Shown: piece after piece, positions 4,495 through 59,690 of the stretch
Numbering within the stretch: the first letter of the stretch is position 1
Layout: the number at the start of each line of letters is the position of its first letter
Source: an archaeon
Lineage (GTDB): Archaea > Aenigmatarchaeota > Aenigmatarchaeia > Aenigmatarchaeales > JACQIB01
NCBI GenBank assembly: GCA_035291225.1
Contig: DATDSO010000004.1
Coordinates: 41,298-105,297, forward strand
DNA length: 64,000 bases
Reading direction: 5' to 3'
Notes under the pieces: generated by a model
The model's database searches: none
What the model was told of the DNA's origin: nothing
Seen by the model: the letters and a program-made list of their open reading frames with translations, nothing else
Made by a program: the position numbers and the translations under genes

Positions 4495-5253
4495 TTAGTT
4501 GTTTCTTTCTCTGGAATTGACCACCACAAGAGTTTTTTGTATTTCTCTCGGCACGGACTTCCTTTCAAAATATGCTCCTCCGGTGGAAAAAAGCAGGCCC
4601 GATATCAACGCAATTGAGTAAGAGAATATAAGAGTGTTAGAGAGCGGCAAGAGGAAGTATTGTAATGCTGCCGAGTACATTCCGCTTGCATCTGGCAAAG
4701 GCAAAAATGTTTCAAAGAAAGGAATTGCTAAAATTGGGAGGCTCGCTATAATAAGAGATATACCCGCATATTTAGATATCTCAAAGATTTTCTTTTTGTT
4801 AAAATAAAGCACAGTTGCTCCTATAAGAGAAAACAAGAATGAAAATATCGAGGCCACCATGAAAATTCCGTTTCCATATTGGCTTACAGCCAATTCAAAA
4901 ACTGAAGTTTTTTCTGAAGGGAAATTTCTGTAATATCCCTGTGAGAAAAGCTCTTCGCCGAAATAAGTTCCTATGTTCTGCTGGGTTGACTGCTTTATTT
5001 TCTCGGAATAGAATTTGAATATATAGCCGCTTGTGCTTTTTCTCTCTATGAACTGCTTTCCATTAGATTCCTCTATCAAGTTTTCTATTTTATCCGGCGG
5101 CTGATTTGCCTGATAGGCTTTTTGCAGAGATTCTATTGCATTTGCCTTAACAACTTCTGGCTGTGTAAAATAGAAAAGCGAGGTTGAAATAACAAAAATG
5201 CTAAGCGAAGCTATCAATATGAAAACTCCAAAAACTGTCTTTAATTCTGACAT
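4495..5253 (-). CDS. Hypothetical polytopic membrane protein
   Basis: Several hydrophobic helices. Lies immediately upstream of minD on the same strand. Confidence 0.4.
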   Translation of the reverse strand: MSELKTVFGVFILIASLSIFVISTSLFYFTQPEVVKANAIESLQKAYQANQPPDKIENLIEESNGKQFIERKSTSGYIFKFYSEKIKQSTQQNIGTYFGEELFSQGYYRNFPSEKTSVFELAVSQYGNGIFMVASIFSFLFSLIGATVLYFNKKKIFEISKYAGISLIIASLPILAIPFFETFLPLPDASGMYSAALQYFLLPLSNTLIFSYSIALISGLLFSTGGAYFERKSVPREIQKTLVVVNSRERNN

Positions 5254-5315
5254 AGTATCTGGAATATACTATGCATAGGTGGTATTTAAAGCTTCTTAAC
5301 TTAGTGGTGGTGAAG

Positions 5316-5448
5316 TGGCGCGCCCGACGGAATTTGAATCCGCGACCTCTTGCTTTCATCTCTTCCAATCTTGGATTAGAAGGTTCGCCTAATCATCAAG
5401 CGCTCTATTTGCTTAACCAAATTAGTTTCCAAGCTGAGCTACGGGCGC
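5316..5448 (-). tRNA. tRNA gene with two putative introns (D-loop and anticodon region) and an encoded CCA; anticodon not assignable by eye
   Basis: - **Acceptor stem:** the minus strand reads GCGCCCG-TA-GCTC-AGCTTGG... and closes with ...GCGGA-TTCAAAT-TCCGT-CGGGCGC-G-CCA. The acceptor stem GCGCCCG/CGGGCGC is perfect.
- **T arm and D stem:** the T-loop is the canonical TTCAAAT and the D-stem is GCTC/GAGC.
- **Length accounting:** the gene is 130 nt, which equals 74 nt mature plus a 21-nt insert in the D-loop plus a 35-nt insert in the anticodon arm. Confidence 0.6.
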
Positions 5449-5487
5449 ACAGCTCTAATAGAAGAACATAACTTATAAATTTGGATT

Positions 5488-6018
5488 TTGAAGATGTTTT
5501 GTGGTGAAATGAAAATTAGAGAAGCTTTGGAAAGAGATTTGGATTATCTTTTTGAAATAGACAAAAAATCTTACGGCGACGATGGTTGGAGCAAAGAGTT
5601 CATGCTGGCGAGGTTTAAGTCGTTTCCAAACGAATTTTTTGTGGCGGAAGAAAATGGAAAACCTACTGGCTTTATTATTTTTGAAATTTTGAGCGGGAAT
5701 GAAACTCCCGCGGGATTTTCTAATATGAAATTGTATAAGCCTCTAGCAGGAAAATGGATGCACATAATAGGATTTACAACCAAGACAAATTACAAAGATA
5801 AAGCAGCCGATTCTAAACTACTTCTGGCAGCAGAAAATATTGGAAAGCGCGAAGGGTGCATAGAAGCATTTGTGCCGCTAAGCAAAAATCATCCTTTTGA
5901 AGAGAATGGAGCATTTAAGTTCTGGAAAGAAAATGGTTATAAAAAATCGGGAGAGATAGATTGGACATCCGAAATAGGCAGTTCTGTTAGCTGCTATTTT
6001 TACAGAAAGAAATTGTGA
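5488..6018 (+). CDS. GNAT-family N-acetyltransferase (probable)
   Basis: The layout resembles RimI. The start could instead be at 5509 (MKIREALERDLDYL). A GNAT core-like segment runs GFIIFEIL...IGFTT. Confidence 0.45.
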   Translation: MKMFCGEMKIREALERDLDYLFEIDKKSYGDDGWSKEFMLARFKSFPNEFFVAEENGKPTGFIIFEILSGNETPAGFSNMKLYKPLAGKWMHIIGFTTKTNYKDKAADSKLLLAAENIGKREGCIEAFVPLSKNHPFEENGAFKFWKENGYKKSGEIDWTSEIGSSVSCYFYRKKL

Positions 6019-6022
6019 TTAA

Positions 6023-9000
6023 ATGGACTTCATCAAAATAGAAAAAAAGTGGCAGGCTGCTTGGGAGAAAGCGAAAATATTTGAGTCCAGCGAGAAATCA
6101 AAGAAGAAAAAATTTTACTGCCTTGAAATGTTCCCATATCCGTCCGGCTCGGGCCTGCATATGGGGCACACGAAAAATTATGTGATTGGGGATATTTTCA
6201 GCCGCTTCAAAAGAATGAAAGGTTTCAATGTTCTTTATCCAATGGGCTATGATGCCTTTGGCTTGCCGGCTGAAAATGCCGCAATAAAAGCCGGAGTTGA
6301 TCCGGAAAAATACACAAAAGAAATAATAGCAAACTTCATCAAGCAGCAGAAAGCAATTGGGCTTAGCTATGATTGGCCGAGAACAATTGCGACATGCGAG
6401 CCTGAATATTACAAATGGAACCAGTTTTTCTTTTTGAAATTTTTTGAGAGAGGCTTGGTCTACAGGAAAAAAGCTGCTGTAAATTGGTGCCCGAAGTGCC
6501 AAACTGTTTTGGCAAACGAGCAGGTTCAGGGAGGAGTTTGCTGGAGGCACACTGACACGCAGGTTGAAATAAAACAGCTTGAGCAGTGGTTTGTCAAAAC
6601 AACAAATTATGCGGATGAGCTGCTTGAGGGAATCAAAGAATTGCAGTGGCCTGAAAGAATTAAAATTATGCAGGAAAATTGGATTGGAAAAAGTTTTGGG
6701 ACTGAAATTGATTTTGAAATTGCTCATGATAGAGAGAAAAAGAAAATTCTTATTGGAACAAGGAACAAAGCAAAAATTTCTATGATAAAAAACGCTTTCG
6801 CAAGTTTTCCTGAAATTGAATTTATTTCTCTTGAGGATTTTCCGAATCTCGATGACTCTGCTTTAAAAGAGGGAAATGATTTCAGGGAAAATTCCCATAA
6901 GAAAGCCGAATTCTATTTCAAGAAGACAGGTATTCGGACTATTTCAACAGATCAAATCCAATGGGTGGAAAAATATCCTAAAGAAAATGGATTTATTGTG
7001 CATGTAAGAAAATTGGCAAATCCAAACTCTCCGCGCGCTTCTGATGAGGAGGTTGGAAAATGGATAGAAGAATTTGTTGAAAAACATGGAGATTCAAGAG
7101 CTAATTTTCATTTTGCTATTTCGTATGCTGATGAGAATGGCATAAAAGATTTTGTCAGCATACAAAAGGAATATATTTTACAGAAGGAAAAGTCAAAAAA
7201 ATCCAACGATGGATACGCCTTTGATAAATATATGAAGGATTCGAACACTGGGGAGTTTAGAATTGAACAGCCTGAGCATATTGCCTTTAGCAAATTTCAT
7301 GATTTTGTTAGAGAGGAATTCGTTCCAAGCGTTTTTCCTAATCTTAAGAAATGGCCGATTTTCACAACGCGCCCTGACACAATTTTCGGAGTTACTTTCA
7401 TGGTTGTTTCTGCGCAGCATCCAAGATTAATGGAACTTGTAACGCAGAAACAGAAAATTGAAGTTGAAAACTTTTTGAAAAAAATAAAATCAACAAGCGA
7501 GAAGGAAACCGAAGAATTAAACAAAGAAGGGGCATTTACAGGAAGCTATGCAATAAATCCTGCGACCGGAGAAAAAATTCCAATCTATGCTGGAAATTTT
7601 GTGATTGCTGATTATGGCTCTGGAATGGTTATGGCTGTGCCTGCCCATGACCAGAGAGATTTTGAATTTGCGAAGAAGTATGGGCTGCCAATCAAGCGCG
7701 TCATCTCTCCAAGCAAACAGAGTTGCATTATTGTTCATGGTTCAAACTCTTCTGAGGCAGCAGCAAAAAAAGGCGCGCTAGAAAATCTGAGGCATTGGAA
7801 GCCGTGGTTAAAGAAAAATCTGGAGAAAAACGGAATAAAAACATCTAATGAATTATATCCCGAAGACTGGCTTCCAGATTATGATAAATGGAAAAGTGTT
7901 TTTGAAAAAAATACAATCGATGAAAATACCATTCTTGTTGGTCATAGCGCCGGAACTGCATTCTTGCTGCGATGGTTAAGTGAGAATAAGAAAAAGGTTA
8001 ACAAACTAATATTGGTGGCGCCATCAGTCATTAAAAAGAATGACAAGTACCTGCGGCTAAGCAAATTAAAGGATTTTAGTTATGACTCATCATTGAAAAA
8101 CTACTTCAATAAATTGGTGGTATTCTATTCAGACAGCGATGCAGAACACATCATAGAAAGTGCAAAACAGATCCATACTAGGCTTGGTGGTGATTTGGTA
8201 CAAATCAAAGGAAAGGGGCATTTCATCTATGAAGATATGGGTACCGAAGAATTTCCCGAATTGCTTGAGGTAATACTTATTCTCAATGAAGCGTTTACCG
8301 GAGATGGAGTTTTAGTAAATTCTGGAAATTTTTCAGGAATGAACAATCGTGAGGCAATCGAAGAAATCACAAAATATTTGGAAAGCAAAAATCTTGGAAA
8401 GAAAGTTGTAAATTATAAACTGCGCGACTGGTTGATTTCGCGCCAGAGATATTGGGGCACGCCGATTCCAATAATTTATTGCGGGAAGTGCGGAATTGTC
8501 CCTGTGCCTGAAAAAGACTTGCCAATTCTCCTGCCGAAGGATGTGAAGTTTGGGCAAGGAAATCCTTTGCTCACAAGCGAGAAATTTGTGAAAACAAAAT
8601 GCCCGAAATGCAAATCTCCCGCCAAAAGAGAAACTGACACAATGGACACTTTCTTTGACAGCAGCTGGTATTTTTTGAGATACTGCGACAGCAAAAATTC
8701 CAAAGTTCCGTTTGAAAAGAAAAAAGCAGAATACTGGATGCCGGTTGACCAATATATTGGCGGCGCAGAGCACGCGTGCATGCACTTAATCTACGCGAGA
8801 TTTTTCACAAAAGTTTTGCGGGATATGGGAATGCTGAAATTTGGAGAGCCGTTTCCGAAATTGTTCAACCAAGGAATGCTGCATAAAGATGGATTTGTAA
8901 TGAGCAAGAGCCGGGGAAATGTTGTGTCCCCAGATGAGGTTTCAAAAAAATACGGAATTGATGCGGCAAGATTTTTCCTAATGTTTGCGGCCGCGCCTGA

Positions 9001-9631
9001 CAGAGACACTGAATGGACTGAGGATGGAATAGAAAGTGGAAGCCGCGTTGTGAGCAAGCTGATTTCCATCGGAAAGAAAAAATTCGGCAGGGATGATTTG
9101 AAACTTCTAAATAAATTGCACAGAGCCATAATTTTTGTTGAAGAAAATTTGGAAAAGTTTCAATACAATTTTGCTTTGGTAAAGCTAAGTGATTTGCTTG
9201 GCAGATTTGAAAAAGCAGAATACAGCAAAAAATCTTTTGAAACTTTGCTTTTGCTTTTCAGCCCTTTCATGCCTCATATTTGCGAGGAGCTATGGCATAA
9301 GATTGGAAACAAAAGTTTTATTTCAGAAGAAATCTGGCCTGCGGCTGAAAAGAAATTTATCAGCGAGGAGCTTGAGCAGCAGGAGAAAGCTCTTGAAAAA
9401 ACAATAGAAGATGTGAGGCATATTCTGAAAATTGTTGGAAAATCTGCGAAGAAGATTTACATTTATGCAATACCAAAAGAAGTTGAAGTTTACAAAGAAA
9501 TGTCTAATGATTTGAAAAAAGAATTTTCCTGCGAGGTAAATGTTTTTGCTGTTAATGATCCGAAGAAATATGACCCGGAAAACAAATCCCAAAAGGCAAA
9601 GCCAGGCAAGCCTGGGATTTTGGTGGAGTAG
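6023..9631 (+). CDS. leuS: Leucine--tRNA ligase, bacterial type, with two large inserted domains
   Basis: - **Bacterial-type signatures:** the HMGH signature (PYPSGSGLHMGHTKNYVIGD), TTRPDTIFG at the start of the editing domain, and the anticodon-binding region KLRDWLISRQRYWGTPIP.
- **Length:** 1202 aa, against roughly 860 aa for typical bacterial-type LeuRS.
- **Extra segments:** at approximately residues 240-435 and 568-757. Confidence 0.9.
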   Translation: MDFIKIEKKWQAAWEKAKIFESSEKSKKKKFYCLEMFPYPSGSGLHMGHTKNYVIGDIFSRFKRMKGFNVLYPMGYDAFGLPAENAAIKAGVDPEKYTKEIIANFIKQQKAIGLSYDWPRTIATCEPEYYKWNQFFFLKFFERGLVYRKKAAVNWCPKCQTVLANEQVQGGVCWRHTDTQVEIKQLEQWFVKTTNYADELLEGIKELQWPERIKIMQENWIGKSFGTEIDFEIAHDREKKKILIGTRNKAKISMIKNAFASFPEIEFISLEDFPNLDDSALKEGNDFRENSHKKAEFYFKKTGIRTISTDQIQWVEKYPKENGFIVHVRKLANPNSPRASDEEVGKWIEEFVEKHGDSRANFHFAISYADENGIKDFVSIQKEYILQKEKSKKSNDGYAFDKYMKDSNTGEFRIEQPEHIAFSKFHDFVREEFVPSVFPNLKKWPIFTTRPDTIFGVTFMVVSAQHPRLMELVTQKQKIEVENFLKKIKSTSEKETEELNKEGAFTGSYAINPATGEKIPIYAGNFVIADYGSGMVMAVPAHDQRDFEFAKKYGLPIKRVISPSKQSCIIVHGSNSSEAAAKKGALENLRHWKPWLKKNLEKNGIKTSNELYPEDWLPDYDKWKSVFEKNTIDENTILVGHSAGTAFLLRWLSENKKKVNKLILVAPSVIKKNDKYLRLSKLKDFSYDSSLKNYFNKLVVFYSDSDAEHIIESAKQIHTRLGGDLVQIKGKGHFIYEDMGTEEFPELLEVILILNEAFTGDGVLVNSGNFSGMNNREAIEEITKYLESKNLGKKVVNYKLRDWLISRQRYWGTPIPIIYCGKCGIVPVPEKDLPILLPKDVKFGQGNPLLTSEKFVKTKCPKCKSPAKRETDTMDTFFDSSWYFLRYCDSKNSKVPFEKKKAEYWMPVDQYIGGAEHACMHLIYARFFTKVLRDMGMLKFGEPFPKLFNQGMLHKDGFVMSKSRGNVVSPDEVSKKYGIDAARFFLMFAAAPDRDTEWTEDGIESGSRVVSKLISIGKKKFGRDDLKLLNKLHRAIIFVEENLEKFQYNFALVKLSDLLGRFEKAEYSKKSFETLLLLFSPFMPHICEELWHKIGNKSFISEEIWPAAEKKFISEELEQQEKALEKTIEDVRHILKIVGKSAKKIYIYAIPKEVEVYKEMSNDLKKEFSCEVNVFAVNDPKKYDPENKSQKAKPGKPGILVE

Positions 9632-32833: not shown

Positions 32834-32935
32834 AGCCCCGTCGTCTAGTGGCCAAATTTTCAGGCTATGGATAACTGGCTCTGATCTCAGAAGAGAAACC
32901 AGTTGACATCTGTTCGAATCAGATCGGGGCTACCA
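32834..32935 (+). tRNA. tRNA-Gln (anticodon CUG) with a 13-nt anticodon-loop intron, an oversized D-loop (probable second insert) and an encoded CCA
   Basis: - **Arms:** acceptor AGCCCCG/CGGGGCT, T-arm ATCTG-TTCGAAT-CAGAT, anticodon stem ACTGG/CCAGT.
- **Anticodon loop and intron:** the loop is CUCUGA followed by the insert UCUCAGAAGAGAA and then A, which gives anticodon CUG after excision at 37/38. The loop and intron are complementary, which fits a bulge-helix-bulge (BHB) splicing structure.
- **D-loop:** 22 nt, against the usual 8-11. Confidence 0.65.
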
Positions 32936-42650: not shown

Positions 42651-43823
42651 ATGCAAGAAGATTTTTACATTAGCCCAGAGCCGGAAAAATTTGCAAGAAT
42701 TAGCAAGTGGGGAGTTCCTGCGCTTTCGCCGACGGTTAATTATGGAATGGCTTTGTTTGAGGGAATGAGCATAATTGCCAGAAAAAAAGGGAGCGGCTAC
42801 AGGCTTTCGTTCTTTCATCCTATGCTGAATTATGAGCGCATGAAGTTTGGCGTTGATGAGCTTGGAATGAATGCGCCTGTTTATCCGATGGAGAGGCACA
42901 TCAAAACAGTTTTCCAAATCTGCGCGCTGAATGGATGGAACAAAAAAATCAGCCTGAATGGAAAAGAAATTTCTATTGAAAGAGCTAATGGAGAAAAATA
43001 TGCGCGAATTTATGTGCGACCTGTTGTTTACTCAACAACAAATTCAATCGGGCTTGGGGCAAAAATGGATTTCACAATAATGCACGCGCTCCTGCCTTTC
43101 GGGCAGTATTTGAAAATGGAAAATCCTGGTGGGATAAAAACTATTTTGTATCCGAAACCGCGCAGCATTCCATTTGCGAATTTCAAAATGATTTCCAATT
43201 ATCCCATCAGTATAAGCGCGCGGGGGCTTTTGAATTCTTTCAATGAGAAAAACAAATATAATGCAGAGGAAGCGGTTTTTGTGAATGAGGCTGGGGTTCT
43301 TACTGAAGGGAGCGGGGAAAATATTCTTTTGCTTAAAGATAATGAATTGATTACTCCGCCTGTTAGTGCGGGAGCTTTACCTGGGACAACTCTGAGAATC
43401 GTTTCAAAAATTGCAGAATCTCTTGGAGTGAGATTTTCTTTCAGAACTTTTTTCCCGAAAGATATTGAGAAAGCTGAAACGATGTTTTTTACTGGGAATG
43501 CAGCAGGCATGATTCCTATTGCATCAATTGCAGAAATTGATGAAAAGTTTTCTGTGAAAAAATTGCATGAAACAGAAATTGGCGGGAGAGGAGAGCTTTT
43601 CAAGAAAATAAATTCTCTGTATGAAAGCGTTGTTTTTGGAGATGACTCATTCGGAGATTTTTCTGTTTACTTTGATGATTGGATGAGTGAGGAAGAAGCG
43701 GACGAGCTTGAGAAGGAAAAGCGGGATTCTTTTTCTTTGAACATGAAAATAAATCCGCCGGAGAAATGGGAGAAACAAAAAGAATCTGTTTTGAAAGAGT
43801 TGGGGATTGGGAAGTTTTTGTGA
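42651..43823 (+). CDS. Class IV PLP-dependent aminotransferase (branched-chain aminotransferase-like) with acidic C-terminal extension
   Basis: N-terminal pattern W..P..S.....GMALFEGMSI followed by the core fold-type IV region. About 90 extra C-terminal residues. Confidence 0.55.
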   Translation: MQEDFYISPEPEKFARISKWGVPALSPTVNYGMALFEGMSIIARKKGSGYRLSFFHPMLNYERMKFGVDELGMNAPVYPMERHIKTVFQICALNGWNKKISLNGKEISIERANGEKYARIYVRPVVYSTTNSIGLGAKMDFTIMHALLPFGQYLKMENPGGIKTILYPKPRSIPFANFKMISNYPISISARGLLNSFNEKNKYNAEEAVFVNEAGVLTEGSGENILLLKDNELITPPVSAGALPGTTLRIVSKIAESLGVRFSFRTFFPKDIEKAETMFFTGNAAGMIPIASIAEIDEKFSVKKLHETEIGGRGELFKKINSLYESVVFGDDSFGDFSVYFDDWMSEEEADELEKEKRDSFSLNMKINPPEKWEKQKESVLKELGIGKFL

Positions 43824-43864
43824 TTAGATGTTTGGTTTTTAAATTTCCTTTTACAATAGTTTTA

Positions 43865-45043
43865 ATGAAGTTTGTAATTTTCCATGGAGCCTACGGGAAT
43901 CCTGAAAAGAATTGGTTCCCAGAATTAAAGGAAAGGCTTGAAATGTTTGGACAGGAAGTTATTGCTCCAAAATTTCCTGTTGAGGATTGGAATGAAGTTT
44001 CTAAGGCAGGACACGATTTCAATCCGAGAAATCAGACTCTTGAAAGCTGGATGAAGGTTTTTGATAAAGTAAAGAGCGATTTCAAGAAAGGAGAAAAGCT
44101 TTGCTTTATCGGGCACTCAATGTCGCCTGTTTTTATTTTACGTGTTGTTGAAAAATACGACCTTAAGCTTGATAGCGCGATTTTCGTTTCACCGTTTCTT
44201 GGACCTCTCGGGAATCCACGCTTTGATGTTGTAAACAAAAGCTTTTACAAAACAGATTTTGATTTTGAAAAGCTTAGGAAGCTCGTACCTGTTTCGTATG
44301 TGCTTTACTCTGAAAATGATCCCTACGTCCACGAAAAGAATTCAAAAGAGTTTGCTGAAAAAATGCATAGCTCTGTAATCTTTGTCAGAAAGGCCGGCCA
44401 TATGAACAGCGAGGTTAATTTGAACGAGTTCCCTCTTGTTCTTGAGCTTTGTAAATCGCGGCTTGATTTGTCTCTTTATCAGAAATATCTCGCACATAGA
44501 AGAGAACTTTACTCTGTTCCATATATCAATGGAAAAGGTGAAGAAATTATTTTTTTGGATCCGAAGGAGGTTTTCGAGGAGGGGGTTTTTCATTTTAGAA
44601 ATTTGAGGCAGGAAGGCTTTTGCACATTTCTTACATCACTGAAATTCTGGGATACTCAGTCAAAGTATATGGAAGAGGCGCGAAAAGCCGCAATGAGAAT
44701 AAAGCTCATAAGAGTTTTCATTATTGATAAAATATCAGATTTGAAACGATCAAATATCTTAAAACAAATAATACTTGATATGGAAGCTGGTATCAATGTT
44801 TATTTTTGCATACTTAGCCAGATAGAAGGTAAAACCGGAGAGATCGACTTTGGTATTTGGGATAATGATTATCTTTGCGCCGTGCATTATGATAAGCGTG
44901 GTGGCATAAACGAAGTTAAGCTAACAAGCCGCGCTAAAGATATCGAAGAGGCTTTAAAGTGGAAAAATATTATTCTAAAAAAAGCTGTGCGCATCAAAAG
45001 CGAAAAAGATATTAAAATATTTGTCGAAGATTTTCATCCTTAA
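43865..45043 (+). CDS. RBBP9/YdeN-type serine hydrolase fused to an uncharacterised C-terminal domain
   Basis: VIFHGAYGNPEKNWFPEL, a GHSMS nucleophile elbow, then ENDPYV (Asp) and AGHMN (His) at RBBP9-like spacing. A C-terminal domain of about 190 aa has no recognised motif. Confidence 0.6.
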   Translation: MKFVIFHGAYGNPEKNWFPELKERLEMFGQEVIAPKFPVEDWNEVSKAGHDFNPRNQTLESWMKVFDKVKSDFKKGEKLCFIGHSMSPVFILRVVEKYDLKLDSAIFVSPFLGPLGNPRFDVVNKSFYKTDFDFEKLRKLVPVSYVLYSENDPYVHEKNSKEFAEKMHSSVIFVRKAGHMNSEVNLNEFPLVLELCKSRLDLSLYQKYLAHRRELYSVPYINGKGEEIIFLDPKEVFEEGVFHFRNLRQEGFCTFLTSLKFWDTQSKYMEEARKAAMRIKLIRVFIIDKISDLKRSNILKQIILDMEAGINVYFCILSQIEGKTGEIDFGIWDNDYLCAVHYDKRGGINEVKLTSRAKDIEEALKWKNIILKKAVRIKSEKDIKIFVEDFHP

Positions 45044-51849: not shown

Positions 51850-52407
51850 ATGCGCCTTTTCATTGGAATTCCGATGCCGGAAGAGCTTAAGCAAAAGCTT
51901 TTGGCCTCTCAAAAACAAATAGAAAAGCTTTGCGACATCAAACTTGTTGAGCCAGAGAACCTTCACTTCTCCCTGAAATTCATCGGTGAAGTAAATGAAG
52001 ATCGCGTGAAGGAAATTCGTGAAGTTCTCACATCCGCGGCAGAAAAATTTTCTGCTTTCGCGCTTTCAATAGCTGGCATTGGCGCGTTTCCGTCAGCCGG
52101 CTCAGCTCGCGTTGTCTGGGCAGGTTGTTCTGCTGGCGCAAAAGAGCTCGAAGCTCTCGCGGGCTTTATAGATTCAGAACTTTCTAAAGTCGGCTTTGCT
52201 GGCGAGGAGCGGCTGTTCAGAGCACATTTGACACTTGGCAGAATTAGACAGTTAGAAAATAACCCAGCCCTGCAAAAATTTATTTCCGGCAACAAAGAAA
52301 AAGATTTTGGCTCTTTCAGGGTTTCAAAAATCTCTCTAATAGAATCAGAGCTCAGCCCTCACGGGTCGACTTACATAGAAATTTTTTCAGTTGATTTACA
52401 TGAATAA
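51850..52407 (+). CDS. thpR: RNA 2',3'-cyclic phosphodiesterase (2H family, LigT/ThpR-like)
   Basis: Two H-x-T/S-x motifs (HFSLKF and HLTLGR) at the expected spacing. Confidence 0.8.
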   Translation: MRLFIGIPMPEELKQKLLASQKQIEKLCDIKLVEPENLHFSLKFIGEVNEDRVKEIREVLTSAAEKFSAFALSIAGIGAFPSAGSARVVWAGCSAGAKELEALAGFIDSELSKVGFAGEERLFRAHLTLGRIRQLENNPALQKFISGNKEKDFGSFRVSKISLIESELSPHGSTYIEIFSVDLHE

Positions 52408-54174: not shown

Positions 54175-55893
54175 CTATCTCACAGCAACAGCAACCCCTC
54201 TCTTGAAATCTTTCATTTCCTGCGAATTTAGAACGGCTGTGCCGCAATTCAAAAACTTTTTTCTGAAATAAACTGCAACTTCTTCTCCGGGGAAAATATT
54301 TTTGTCTGCCCGAGAAACAAATTTTGCGAAAACGCTCCTGCCGGCTTTTGCGTGCTCGGCAACTTCCTTGTCCTTGACAAAAACTTTTTTCATTGGAATT
54401 TTCTCAGCAGAAAATTTCGTTGGAATAAAAAATCCATCATGCGGCCTGAAAGTTCCGAGCAAAACTTTTTTGCTGTCCCACGCGCGCACAGGCCTGCCTG
54501 TGTTTTTGGAAACTTCCACGAAAACTTTCTTGAATTTTTTGTCAGCGGATTTTCCAAATTGATATTGAACTGTTTGCCGGAAAACTTCCTCTGGTTTGGC
54601 TTTTGCTTTTTCAAATCTCTGGCTTGGAACAATGCTCTGCGAAAATGGATAAGCCCACTTGAGCCCAACAGGAATTTTTCCAAACGGCTCTTTGCGGAAA
54701 AACTTTTTCGCGCGCACATTTTTCAAAAATTCTTTTGCGCGCAAAATCTCAGGCCTAAAGTTTGATTCCTCTCCGAGCCAAAGCAAAGCAGATTTTTTTG
54801 AAACCAGCTCGCGGACGGAAAAATATTTTGGATAATTTTCCCAAACATGGGCGAGCGCGCGGAGCAAATTCGGATGCGCGCGGGCTCGCTGCTGCACCAA
54901 TTCCCACAGCCACTGCCCGCGAATCGCCTCTCTGACAGTTCGCATTTCAGCCATTGTTGTGTACAAATTGTGCCGCGTTAAAAATTCCTCCTGCTTTTCT
55001 TTTTCCATTTTTTTAATTTCAAATGGGTTTGAATTTGCGCAGACTTTGCACGCGCAGGGAAATTCCGAAAGCTCAGAAAGATTTTGCGTGCCGCTCAAAG
55101 TCAGGTAAGCCCCGCGCTGGGCAGCAAGAGAATACATTGCAGAATCAAATAAATCGCAGCCCACTGCTGCTAAAAAAGCAAAAGTTATTGGATGGCCTGC
55201 GCCAAATGCGTGCACAGGCTTGTTTGCCGGCAGATTTTGCTTGCAGGTTATGATTATGTCAGCGAGCTCTCTGAATCTATACTGCTCCATTAGCGGAACA
55301 ATTCCTCCAATGGAAAAAACATCTGGCTCTAATTTCGCAACCTGCTTTGCGGCTGCTGCGCGCAGTTTCAAATGCGAGCCGCCTTGAATTGGGCCGTTTA
55401 ATAAATGAAGAGCATCCCCTGAATTATGTGTTGCAAGAATTTTCTTAGCAGCAGCAATTCTTTCTAAAGTTTGCTTTAATTTTTTATTCGCGATTTTGTA
55501 ATCGTCTTTCGGCAAAGTGAAAATATCCACAGGAGTTATAATATCCGAGCCAAATTTTTTCTGGAACTCCACAATCTCCTCTGCGTTTTCAATTTCAATA
55601 TTCTGCGAGAACATTTGGAAAGTTCCGGAGTCAGTGTAAATCGGGCCGCTGAAATTCAGAAATTTATGCAGGCCTTCTGAAATTACTTTCTTTGTGATTT
55701 CTTCATTCTTCAGAATTATATAAGAATTCGTAATTATGATTTCCACGCCGAATTCTTTTTTCATTTCCGCAGGCGCAATTGCCTGGCGGTTCGGGTTTAC
55801 AACAATCGCAATGTTCGGGGTTTTGATTTCATAATCAGAAATTTTCCATTTGCACAAGCGGGCGGCTGCGTCTCTGTCTGAGAGCTCGAACAT
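54175..55893 (-). CDS. tgtA: Archaeosine tRNA-guanine transglycosylase (ArcTGT, with C-terminal PUA-type extension)
   Basis: Catalytic YTDSGTFQ, the zinc site CACKVCANSNP...H, and GAGHP...GCDLFDSAMY. At 572 aa it includes the C-terminal domains. Confidence 0.85.
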   Translation of the reverse strand: MFELSDRDAAARLCKWKISDYEIKTPNIAIVVNPNRQAIAPAEMKKEFGVEIIITNSYIILKNEEITKKVISEGLHKFLNFSGPIYTDSGTFQMFSQNIEIENAEEIVEFQKKFGSDIITPVDIFTLPKDDYKIANKKLKQTLERIAAAKKILATHNSGDALHLLNGPIQGGSHLKLRAAAAKQVAKLEPDVFSIGGIVPLMEQYRFRELADIIITCKQNLPANKPVHAFGAGHPITFAFLAAVGCDLFDSAMYSLAAQRGAYLTLSGTQNLSELSEFPCACKVCANSNPFEIKKMEKEKQEEFLTRHNLYTTMAEMRTVREAIRGQWLWELVQQRARAHPNLLRALAHVWENYPKYFSVRELVSKKSALLWLGEESNFRPEILRAKEFLKNVRAKKFFRKEPFGKIPVGLKWAYPFSQSIVPSQRFEKAKAKPEEVFRQTVQYQFGKSADKKFKKVFVEVSKNTGRPVRAWDSKKVLLGTFRPHDGFFIPTKFSAEKIPMKKVFVKDKEVAEHAKAGRSVFAKFVSRADKNIFPGEEVAVYFRKKFLNCGTAVLNSQEMKDFKRGVAVAVR

Positions 55894-58355: not shown

Positions 58356-59690
58356 ATGGACCTCGGACTTCGCGAAAAAGTAATAATAATAAATTCAGGC
58401 AAGTGCGCATGGGGCGGCTGCACTTACTGCGGATGGGGCAGGCTTGTCGCAAAGAAAAAAAATATGCATGAGCTGAAAAAATTCTGGGATGAGCAGGTAG
58501 CTGACATAAAGCCCGGCTCAATTGACAGAATAAAAATTTTCAACTCTGGATGCTTCCTTGATGAAAAACAAATTGTTCCTGCTTTTAGAAGCTATGTTGT
58601 GCGCTCATGCGAAAAGCTTGGAGTGAAAAGCTTGATAGTTGAAAGCTTTCCAAAATTCATCACGCCGGAAAATTTGGAGAATATGCAATCGGATAAAGTG
58701 AAAATTCTCGCTGGCATTGGTTTGGAAGTTGCAGATGATGAGGGATTGAAACTTGTGCAGAAAGGATTTACGCTAAAAGAATTTGCTGACGCGCGCGAAA
58801 TTCTAAAAAAGTTTGGCTGGGGCATACGCGCCTATTTGCTTGTGAACGCGCCGAAGTGCGAAAAAATTTCACTGCAAAAAACAGTTGAATGGGCGCGAGA
58901 GCATTCGGATGAAATTATTTTGATAAACACTCTGCCGCACTATGCTGCGCCGATTATGGATATGTGGCTTGGCAGGGAGTGGAAGCCTCTGGACAGAAAG
59001 CAATTCAATGAAGCTGTTGCGCCGTTTGAAAGTTTTTGCGAAACTGATTTTGAGAATTTTTCTTTTGTGCCGGCTTTTCCTTTGAGGCTCAAGAAAAAAA
59101 TCCGCGGCGCAACTGAAGAGGCTTTGAAAAATCCTGCGTTTGAAGTTTGGCAGGATTTTATCTGCAGGTTTTGGGTTCCTCCAAAAGAAAAAGAAATTTT
59201 ATTTTTCATTCCGTGCGCTTTCAGAAAGCCTTATCCGAATTCGCAGCTGCATAAGGCAATAATGTCTGTTGCAACAAAAGCAAAAGATTTTGAGAAAATG
59301 CAGTTTTGCGTTGTAAGCACGCCAGGCATTGTTCCATTGCAGTTTTCCCAGAGGTATCCGTTTGATTCTTATGACTGGCCTGAATGGGAGGAAACTGAAG
59401 AGATAAAGAAAATTTACACGCAGGTTACGCAAGAAAGAGTTGAAAATTTTCTGGCAGCGCACGCTGGCAAATACAAAAAAATAATTTCCTATTTCAAGCC
59501 AGCCTCGGAAAGCTTTGTTGCTTTGCGGGCCGCGTGCGAGAAATTAAATTTGAATTTGGAAAATTTAATTTCTGAAAAGGAATTTGAAAACGTTTCTGAA
59601 ATGAAAAATCCTCTGGCTCAGGCGGATGCGCTGGAATGTTTGGGAAGAGGGTTGGGGGTGAAAGCGGTGGCGGTTGCCGCATCGGCATGA
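58356..59690 (+). CDS. Radical-SAM-like Fe-S protein (COG1244/RaSEA-like, possible archaeosine synthesis partner) with C-terminal extension
   Basis: N-terminal Cys cluster GKCAWGGCTYCGWG with CX4CX2C spacing. The remainder looks like a TIM-barrel. Lies about 2.5 kb from tgtA. Confidence 0.45.
   Translation: MDLGLREKVIIINSGKCAWGGCTYCGWGRLVAKKKNMHELKKFWDEQVADIKPGSIDRIKIFNSGCFLDEKQIVPAFRSYVVRSCEKLGVKSLIVESFPKFITPENLENMQSDKVKILAGIGLEVADDEGLKLVQKGFTLKEFADAREILKKFGWGIRAYLLVNAPKCEKISLQKTVEWAREHSDEIILINTLPHYAAPIMDMWLGREWKPLDRKQFNEAVAPFESFCETDFENFSFVPAFPLRLKKKIRGATEEALKNPAFEVWQDFICRFWVPPKEKEILFFIPCAFRKPYPNSQLHKAIMSVATKAKDFEKMQFCVVSTPGIVPLQFSQRYPFDSYDWPEWEETEEIKKIYTQVTQERVENFLAAHAGKYKKIISYFKPASESFVALRAACEKLNLNLENLISEKEFENVSEMKNPLAQADALECLGRGLGVKAVAVAASA

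Follow-up and report, generated by a model that had tools for sequence, protein, structure and literature searches.

The window analysed here is a 64,000-nucleotide (nt) stretch of archaeal DNA, and the element of interest within it is a tRNA gene on the minus strand (Table 1). Read on that strand, positions 5316-5448 give GCGCCCG-UA-GCUC-AGCUUGG[...]AUA-GAGC-G-CUUG[...]CCUUCUA[...]A-GCAAG-AGGUC-GCGGA-UUCAAAU-UCCGU-CGGGCGC-G-CCA, with the inserts shown as dots. The gene comprises a 7-bp acceptor stem (GCGCCCG/CGGGCGC), a D-stem (GCTC/GAGC), a T-arm (GCGGA-TTCAAAT-TCCGT) and a discriminator G, and extra sequence is present in the D-loop and the anticodon arm. The acceptor stem, D-stem, T-loop TTCAAAT and encoded CCA named in the original prediction were all confirmed in the minus-strand sequence, and its total length of 130 nt was right for the gene without CCA (133 nt with CCA). 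Its general proposal, an archaeal tRNA gene with bulge-helix-bulge (BHB)-type introns that include a non-canonical D-loop intron, also held, and the host lineage (DPANN) is known for disrupted tRNA genes (PMC5829648). The locus is very probably a functional three-intron tRNA-Arg(UCU) gene of a DPANN archaeon, a tiny groundwater organism.

Table 1. Features of the tRNA-Arg(UCU) gene, its orthologous alleles and the second tRNA gene of the window (coordinates of L009 and L014 refer to those sequences, all others to the window).
Feature	Coordinates	Strand	Details
tRNA-Arg(UCU) gene, encoded CCA included	5316..5448	minus	133 nt; from sequence and cloverleaf fold of the spliced product
TATA-like promoter box TTTATAA (within AAATTTATAAG)	5473..5479	minus	25-31 nt upstream of the mature 5' end
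Exon 1	5429..5448	minus	Acceptor 5' strand, U8-A9, D-stem 5' strand, D-loop through G18-G19; base-for-base match to orthologues
Intron 1 (AAACTAATTTGGTTAAGCAA)	5409..5428 (gene 21-40)	minus	20 nt; D-loop, G19/A20; strict hBHBh'
Exon 2	5397..5408	minus	A20-U20a-A21, D-stem 3' strand, G26, anticodon-stem 27-30 (CUUG)
Intron 2 (AUGAUUAGGCGAA)	5384..5396 (gene 53-65)	minus	13 nt; position 30/31
Exon 3, micro-exon CCUUCUA	5377..5383	minus	7 nt; C31 and C32-U33-U34-C35-U36-A37; anticodon UCU at 5378-5380
Intron 3 (AUCCAAGAUUGGAAGAGAUGAA)	5355..5376 (gene 73-94)	minus	22 nt; canonical 37/38; relaxed BHB
Exon 4	5316..5354	minus	A38, anticodon-stem 3' strand GCAAG, variable loop AGGUC, T-arm, acceptor 3' strand, G73, CCA (5316-5318)
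Window allele			Introns at D-loop, 30/31, 37/38
L009	598-803	plus	Four introns: D-loop 23 nt, 30/31 13 nt, 37/38 22 nt, 59/60 70 nt
L014	390-567	minus	Four introns: D-loop 21 nt, 37/38 39 nt, 53/54 28 nt, 59/60 12 nt
L001			Introns at D-loop (different insert), 37/38, 59/60
L008, L016			Introns at 30/31, 37/38
L007/L015, L010/L017, L011/L013, L012			37/38 intron only
tRNA-Gln(CUG) gene, encoded CCA	32834-32935	plus	Two 13-nt BHB introns; missed by default ARAGORN and Rfam
tRNA-Gln intron at D-loop/D-stem border (AUUUUCAGGCUAU)	32856-32868	plus	13 nt; central helix GGCC/GGCU, perfect
tRNA-Gln 37/38 intron	32885-32897	plus	13 nt; central helix CUCU/AGAG, perfect

By the archaeal BHB rule, an intron is bounded by 3-nt bulges that lie on opposite strands, 4 bp apart, and each bulge is cut after its second nucleotide; at the canonical site, position 32 pairs with the third-last intron nucleotide. 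All excisions were enumerated, the products were scored by ARAGORN, and the BHB rule was then imposed. The top ARAGORN score was reached only by models with two separate anticodon-arm excisions. Excision of gene positions 21-40, 53-65 and 73-94 (gene index i = 5449 - window coordinate) yielded a 78-nt product (75-nt tRNA plus CCA) in which all four stems were fully paired and U8, A14, G18G19, A20, A21, U33 and the T-loop UUCAAAU were all present. Its anticodon arm read CUUGC-CUUCUAA-GCAAG, with the loop C32-U33-U34-C35-U36-A37-A38. When this product was submitted to ARAGORN, it was called tRNA-Arg(tct) and accepted up to 115% of threshold; the anticodon, which the original prediction could not define unambiguously by eye, is read from the spliced product as UCU. 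Arginine features in the product were this anticodon, with C35, and A20, the first nucleotide after intron 1, which is an established Arg identity element of the D-loop. Judged by its spliced product, the locus is tRNA-Arg, isoacceptor UCU, and charging by ArgRS is predicted. The tRNA-Arg signal lies far beyond chance, because the spliced product was accepted at this level and because the cloverleaf co-varied across orthologues, as described below.

In the resulting parse, the tRNA-Arg coding sequence is made up of four predicted exons and three short BHB introns, in place of the two introns first proposed. The supposed single 35-nt insert in the anticodon arm consists of a 13-nt and a 22-nt intron placed around a 7-nt micro-exon that holds the anticodon. 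The D-loop insert was found where it had been expected, but it measures 20 nt and not 21 nt, as judged by uninterrupted orthologues (TTGG-ATA-GAGC); only 2/4 central BHB pairs form at the 21-nt boundary, compared with 4/4 at the 20-nt boundary, where the BHB has the central helix GCUU/AAGC, bulges GGA and AAA, and a 5-bp inner helix. For intron 2, the central helix CGCU/GGCG was likewise 4/4 paired, with bulges UGA and AAC, a 3-bp outer helix and a minimal h'. Intron 3 has the central helix CUUC/GAUG and bulges UAA and AAA, and the anticodon stem serves as its outer helix after removal of intron 2. A BHB at each insert boundary had been anticipated; it was found with complete central pairing at introns 1 and 2 and, at intron 3, in a relaxed form only (3/4, with a U33.U mismatch), whereas a 4/4 helix was found for no single excision of the anticodon arm. 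A split or permuted tRNA gene was also considered and was ruled out, the four exons being colinear within 133 nt.

The two-intron arrangement combines a 21-nt D-loop intron with one 35-nt anticodon-arm intron, for which the hairpin GATTAG/CTAATC would supply the BHB. It gets the total insert nearly right (56 nt, compared with the 55 nt found), and the hairpin does exist in the sequence. However, 0/380 single-excision products passed ARAGORN at 110% of threshold or above, and all 380 left an A31.G39 mismatch. The hairpin extends from the 30/31 intron into the anticodon loop, is part of no BHB and is absent from the minimum free energy (MFE) fold; the 30/31 introns of L008 and L016 do not conserve it. 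The atypical G at position 33, which the original prediction had itself noted as a conflict, vanished with the three-intron parse, in which U33 is in the loop. Moreover, 30/31 and 37/38 are independent insertion sites in orthologues, the former being empty in most alleles, and L001, L007 and L010 read CTTG|CCTTCTA, by which the arrangement is already refuted; we give it next to no credence.

Ten distinct orthologous alleles of tRNA-Arg(UCU), with near-identical exons, were obtained from related DPANN archaea and aligned exon for exon. L001 was found by synteny, on a contig with a leucyl-tRNA synthetase (LeuRS) 94% identical to that of the window, and L007-L017 (eleven copies) came from one exon-anchored DNA-pattern scan each of genome and metagenome collections; the search pattern kept three parts constant (3' strand of the D-stem, anticodon arm, variable loop) and demanded 10-40 nt at 37/38. 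As shown in Table 1, insertions across these alleles were confined to five sites (D-loop, 30/31, 37/38, 53/54 and 59/60). The D-loop site was empty in L007, L008, L010-L013 and L015-L017, and the sequence left there (...TTGG-ATA-GAGC) equals the predicted exon junction. The 30/31 site was empty in L001, L007, L010-L015 and L017, which read GAGCGCTTG|CCTTCTA, again the predicted junction and in the single possible register. The spliced products of the window gene, L009 and L014 were identical (78/78) despite their different intron sets.

Covariation of the cloverleaf was then measured on the spliced alignment, where 168/168 stem cells were paired and compensatory double changes were found in five pairs (acceptor 3-70, 6-67 and 7-66; T-stem 50-64 and 53-61); in the control, 0/500 shuffles were as good, and slid registers were only 33-63% paired. 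With junctions fixed by comparison, the 4-bp BHB helix was fully paired in 15/19 distinct intron alleles, versus about 2% for shuffled introns. The inner helices of the D-loop introns were unrelated in sequence and all paired (window AACUA/UGGUU, L009 AGUAAA/UUUACU, L014 GGCA/UGCC). Among the 30/31 intron alleles (n = 3), only GGCGAA, comprising a helix strand and a bulge, was conserved; the introns of L008 and L016 are 15 nt long, keep this motif at the 3' end and vary in the loop. Selection on splicing signals is apparent inside the introns, because the D-loop inner helices differ and yet pair and because the 30/31 alleles keep only GGCGAA. At 37/38, the introns homologous to intron 3 had a central helix paired at 4/4 in 6 other alleles (GAAG or GAGG).

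The 54-nt D-loop insert of L001 (914-967) bears no sequence relationship to the D-loop intron of the window type and, with 3/4 central BHB pairs in both candidate registers, forms no clean BHB. Its site may be displaced by 2 nt in the 3' direction, to a position after GGAU, and this would indicate an insertion of independent origin.

The same comparison bears on whether the locus might be a decaying pseudogene, that is, once a tRNA-Arg gene, which has since gathered insertions and ceased to be processed into a working tRNA. Such decay would agree with the failure of standard detectors to call the gene and with a canonical-site BHB that is imperfect (U.U) and energetically disfavoured. The comparative data contradict it: exons are identical in three alleles with different introns, the compensatory stem changes and complete stem pairing are not expected of a pseudogene, insertions occur only at BHB-competent sites, and changes inside the introns preserve helices. 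Moreover, the promoter box is conserved and five assemblies of this organism carry the gene with 100% identity, so that we consider a pseudogene very improbable. In four other assemblies the identity extends over 133 nt and in a fifth over the 97 nt present on its contig; the identical locus lies on 350-380-kb contigs from several groundwater metagenomes. A AAATTTATAA box was present at the same upstream distance (-31 to -25 from position 1) in 10/10 distinct orthologous alleles, and we infer, because of established knowledge of archaeal TATA boxes, that the TATA-like box acts as an archaeal promoter.

Several observations weigh against a functional three-intron gene. Brute-force excision alone is degenerate, with many products tied in ARAGORN score, and BHB geometry alone is permissive, with many chance matches; it is only in combination that excision scoring, BHB geometry and comparative data are decisive. 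The U.U mismatch lies within the 4-bp BHB helix of intron 3, and three registers of this intron give the same product, its boundaries being set by tRNA structure and the BHB. Forming the intron 3 BHB costs 6.5 kcal/mol over the MFE, or 4.4 kcal/mol after removal of intron 2, and the MFE fold pairs the anticodon loop with the 37/38 intron, not in a BHB. The presence of a 37/38 insert in every sampled allele is an ascertainment effect, as the search pattern demanded an insert there. The invariance of the D-stem and anticodon stem is partly due to ascertainment as well, and exon 2 is invariant across alleles in part since the pattern fixed its sequence. Finally, we infer splicing of tRNA-Arg(UCU) in vivo from sequence only, because no endonuclease gene lies in the window: neither EndA (PF01974/PF02778) nor RtcB was found among about 50 window open reading frames (ORFs) scanned against Pfam.

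Folding of the 133-nt precursor was used to examine how the three introns might be removed. The unconstrained MFE was -42.8 kcal/mol, and this fold holds the acceptor stem, the D-stem, the T-arm and the BHB of intron 1; forcing the latter costs 0.1 kcal/mol over the MFE. The intron 2 BHB costs about 3.5 kcal/mol and occupies the D-stem 3' strand and nucleotides 32-34, thereby melting the D-stem. Nucleotides 32-34 of the anticodon loop are also used by the BHB of intron 3; the two motifs cannot coexist, and the precursor would therefore have to refold between cuts. These folding energies suggest an order in which the pre-formed D-loop intron is removed first, then the 30/31 intron and then the 37/38 intron. 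In the proposed pathway, transcription would be driven by the conserved TATA box, which lies about 28 nt upstream of the gene, the splicing endonuclease of archaea (EndA) would cut the bulges stepwise in this order, each after the second nucleotide, with refolding in between, and an RtcB-type ligase would join the exons; the end product would be a 75-nt tRNA already bearing its CCA. Stepwise splicing with refolding of multi-intron genes is likewise described by the authors of tRNAscan-SE (PMC8450103). A broad-specificity EndA is expected in the host, because introns 2 and 3 have minimal or relaxed motifs at non-canonical or imperfect sites.

In the BHB of the D-loop intron, position G15, the target of the archaeosine tRNA-guanine transglycosylase (ArcTGT), is paired within the central helix, and archaeosine insertion therefore probably follows removal of intron 1. 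The window encodes an archaeosine tRNA-guanine transglycosylase (TGT + PUA) at 54175-55893 (-) and a LigT-type 2H phosphoesterase ('2'-5' RNA ligase' family) at 51850-52407 (+). A DUF5591 (ArcS-like) protein is encoded close to these two genes, at 58356-59690 (+).

The pairing that competes with the intron 3 BHB was found in every allele: an intron segment ...UAGAAG (AUUGGAAG in the window) pairs with the anticodon loop and 1-3 intron nucleotides to give a hairpin of 7-9 bp. Its intron-side pairs co-vary, and it is this structure that appears in the MFE fold. In seven alleles (L010:6900-7013; L001, L007, L008, L011, L014 and L016), UAGAAG is followed by 2 nt, CUGA/CCGA/GCGA, 5-7 nt and GAUGA. 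These longer 37/38 introns resemble a box D'/C' K-loop half-guide with U34 at N+5, a resemblance that we offer as a lead and not as a finding. A box C/D guide has a C box (RUGAUGA), a D box (CUGA) and a 10-12-nt guide that ends 1-2 nt before D/D'. The window 37/38 intron retains GAUGA and has lost the CUGA block, together with 3 nt that perfect the BHB helix in other alleles; its identity as a box C/D guide was rejected, the D box being absent, and the orthologues hold at most a C'/D'-like half of such a guide.

It is nonetheless conceivable that the 37/38 insert serves chiefly as a cis-acting guide or chaperone, carrying a box C'/D'-like half-guide that directs 2'-O-methylation of U34, and is more than a passive intron. 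Pairing of the intron with C32-A37 is seen in all alleles, with co-varying flanking pairs, the D'/C'-like layout places U34 at N+5 in seven of them, and Haloferax pre-tRNA-Trp offers a precedent (PMC4090602). On the other hand, the window allele is without a CUGA block, there is no terminal C/D pair, and Rfam C/D families matched below threshold only (sR4, 12.4 bits; snoR64a, 19.8 bits). Neither fibrillarin nor Nop5 was found among the window ORFs scanned against Pfam, and the anticodon-loop pairing could be a stable by-product of intron origin. We regard a primary guide role as unlikely.

When standard tools were applied, ARAGORN at default settings reported 0 tRNA genes in the 64-kb window; the program missed the unspliced gene and recognized only the spliced product. 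Intron mode returned nothing in the tRNA-Arg region at default and only spurious Leu or Gly models at lowered thresholds, and it mis-assigned orthologues as Ser, SeC or Gln. At the gathering threshold, Rfam gave no match in the tRNA-Arg region; in the relaxed E-value mode, the Rfam tRNA model scored the window gene at 19.4 bits, in the wrong register. The positive control L010, which has the canonical intron only, scored 52.2 bits with this model, which shows that the window gene escapes detection through its additional, non-canonical introns. The BHB models of tRNAscan-SE were trained on Cren-, Eury- and Thaumarchaeota, not on DPANN (PMC8450103).

Gene calls at the locus also bear on two further readings, namely that the inserts are self-splicing group I introns or that a small protein-coding ORF occupies the region. 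Group I introns are known from Pace- and Woesearchaeota (PMC6125680), and JGI gene calls put a 66-aa ORF over the region on two contigs (L003 and L005, 2249-2456, +), across the tRNA gene. The inserts, however, are 13, 20 and 22 nt long and have no Rfam intron match; a group I catalytic core (P3-P9) takes about 200 nt or more, far above these lengths. The spliced region is a textbook tRNA, and where other assemblies contain the identical sequence they have no gene call there, so that the tRNA seems to be unannotated. Either reading is, in our judgement, almost inconceivable.

The tRNA-Arg gene lies among archaeal housekeeping genes, including those for PheRS-beta, LeuRS, AlaRS, FtsZ, RadA, ribosomal proteins L11/L1/L10, a class II ribonucleotide reductase and ArcTGT, and the G+C content is about 40%. 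The closest LeuRS relatives are named Nanoarchaeota, Pacearchaeota or Woesearchaeota, and the host is classed by sequence as a DPANN archaeon (Nanoarchaeota in the GTDB sense; Pace-/Woesearchaeota-like). In relatives, the tRNA is directly upstream of LeuRS and on the same strand (window 4495-6018 vs L001:816-1148, L009 and L014). In the window, both the tRNA and its promoter are inverted, and two additional genes flank the tRNA, a 252-aa ORF without a Pfam match and a GNAT acetyltransferase; looking up the exact sequence of the GNAT protein gave no match, probably owing to a wrongly chosen start codon. The window LeuRS (6023-9631, +; 1202 aa) has a serine-hydrolase domain (PF06821) inserted after the editing domain, at residues ~590-749. 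Many DPANN LeuRS homologues carry this insert or NUDIX/alpha-beta-hydrolase inserts, and the L001 LeuRS (815 aa) is without PF06821; a free-standing PF06821 protein is encoded at 43766-45043.

A second tRNA gene, for tRNA-Gln(CUG), was also found in the window (Table 1). Its spliced 76-nt product was accepted by ARAGORN up to 115% of threshold, and ARAGORN intron mode calls the gene His. The tRNA-Arg 30/31 intron (AUGAUUAGGCGAA) and the tRNA-Gln D-loop intron (AUUUUCAGGCUAU) match at 8/13 positions, AGGC included, which is not significant alone and is suggestive of a shared origin or transposition.

Multi-intron tRNA genes and the intron positions described here are already known from Thermoproteales, ARMAN-2 and Methanopyrus kandleri, and with three introns the window gene reaches the highest number published for an archaeal tRNA gene (PMC3239211, PMC8450103). 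L009 and L014 may exceed this record; no report of four-intron archaeal tRNA genes was found in the literature searched, and such a search cannot prove absence. We tentatively entertain the possibility that the window gene belongs, as its three-intron member, to an unusually dynamic series within one Pace-/Woesearchaeota-like clade, in which introns were gained or lost at five BHB sites around the same mature tRNA, L009 and L014 have reached four introns, and the shared 37/38 intron is perhaps the degenerate half of a box C/D guide for U34. Should the pattern prove general, many of the tRNAs reported as 'missing' from complete DPANN genomes would be present as multi-intron genes that escaped detection, and would be neither lost nor split. 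Both tRNA genes found in the 64-kb window were invisible to default ARAGORN and the Rfam tRNA model, and incomplete tRNA sets are held to imply undetected disrupted genes (PMC5829648). Sets for 20 amino acids were reported in only 96/208 complete Nanobdellota genomes, with loss or split genes discussed as the cause (bioRxiv 10.64898/2026.05.13.725050); hidden multi-intron genes would be a simpler explanation, and they would affect claims of DPANN completeness and auxotrophy. The allele series, with one mature tRNA and varying intron sets at five sites, offers a natural experiment on archaeal tRNA intron gain and loss and on the limits of what an EndA can process, with a micro-exon of 7 nt, introns of 12-13 nt and up to four introns in a gene. 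To archaeal tRNA specialists the tRNA-Arg gene is ordinary; for DPANN annotation it is useful.

Among known systems, ARMAN-2 (Ca. Micrarchaeum) is also a DPANN archaeon with many non-canonical introns and relaxed hBH motifs (PMC3239211, PMC12397907). Its pre-tRNA-Pro(GGG) has adjacent introns at 53/54 and 59/60 (PMC3239211), the same two sites as in the orthologue L014. ARMAN-2 belongs, however, to a different DPANN lineage and is cut by an epsilon2 endonuclease, whereas the literature suggests an alpha4 enzyme with an L3 loop for Pace-/Woesearchaeota; such L3-loop alpha4 EndAs in DPANN lineages are linked to increased tRNA disruption (PMC5829648). In M. kandleri, pre-tRNA-Glu(UUC) combines a D-loop HBh' intron with a canonical intron (PMC5829648), and thus resembles the window gene in having a non-canonical D-loop intron and a 37/38 intron together. 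The D-loop motif of M. kandleri is relaxed and is removed after the canonical intron, whereas that of the window gene is strict (hBHBh'), pre-formed and predicted to be removed first.

As in the window gene, the intron of Haloferax volcanii pre-tRNA-Trp pairs with the anticodon loop in competition with the BHB (PMC4090602), and the C'/D'-like boxes of the longer orthologous 37/38 introns would put position 34 at N+5, as in that precursor. The Haloferax intron is ~100 nt long with a box C/D guide, whereas the tRNA-Arg 37/38 introns are 22-39 nt, at most half a guide unit, and the window allele is without a D'-like box. The multi-intron genes of Thermoproteales (for example Pyrobaculum calidifontis and Thermofilum; Sugahara et al. 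via PMC4090602, PMC8450103) have, like the window gene, up to three BHB introns. In Thermoproteales and other archaea, their sites include 20/21, 30/31, 53/54 and 59/60 (PMC4090602, PMC8450103). Shared traits are the non-canonical sites, intron gain and loss between relatives, and neighbouring introns whose BHBs form only after another intron has been removed. Thermoproteales, in contrast, are hyperthermophilic crenarchaea with an (alpha-beta)2 EndA, while the window host is a mesophilic DPANN archaeon of ~40% GC. The window gene also differs in its AT-rich and very short introns (13-22 nt), in a D-loop site that the BHB register puts at 19/20, and in having two orthologues that reach four introns.

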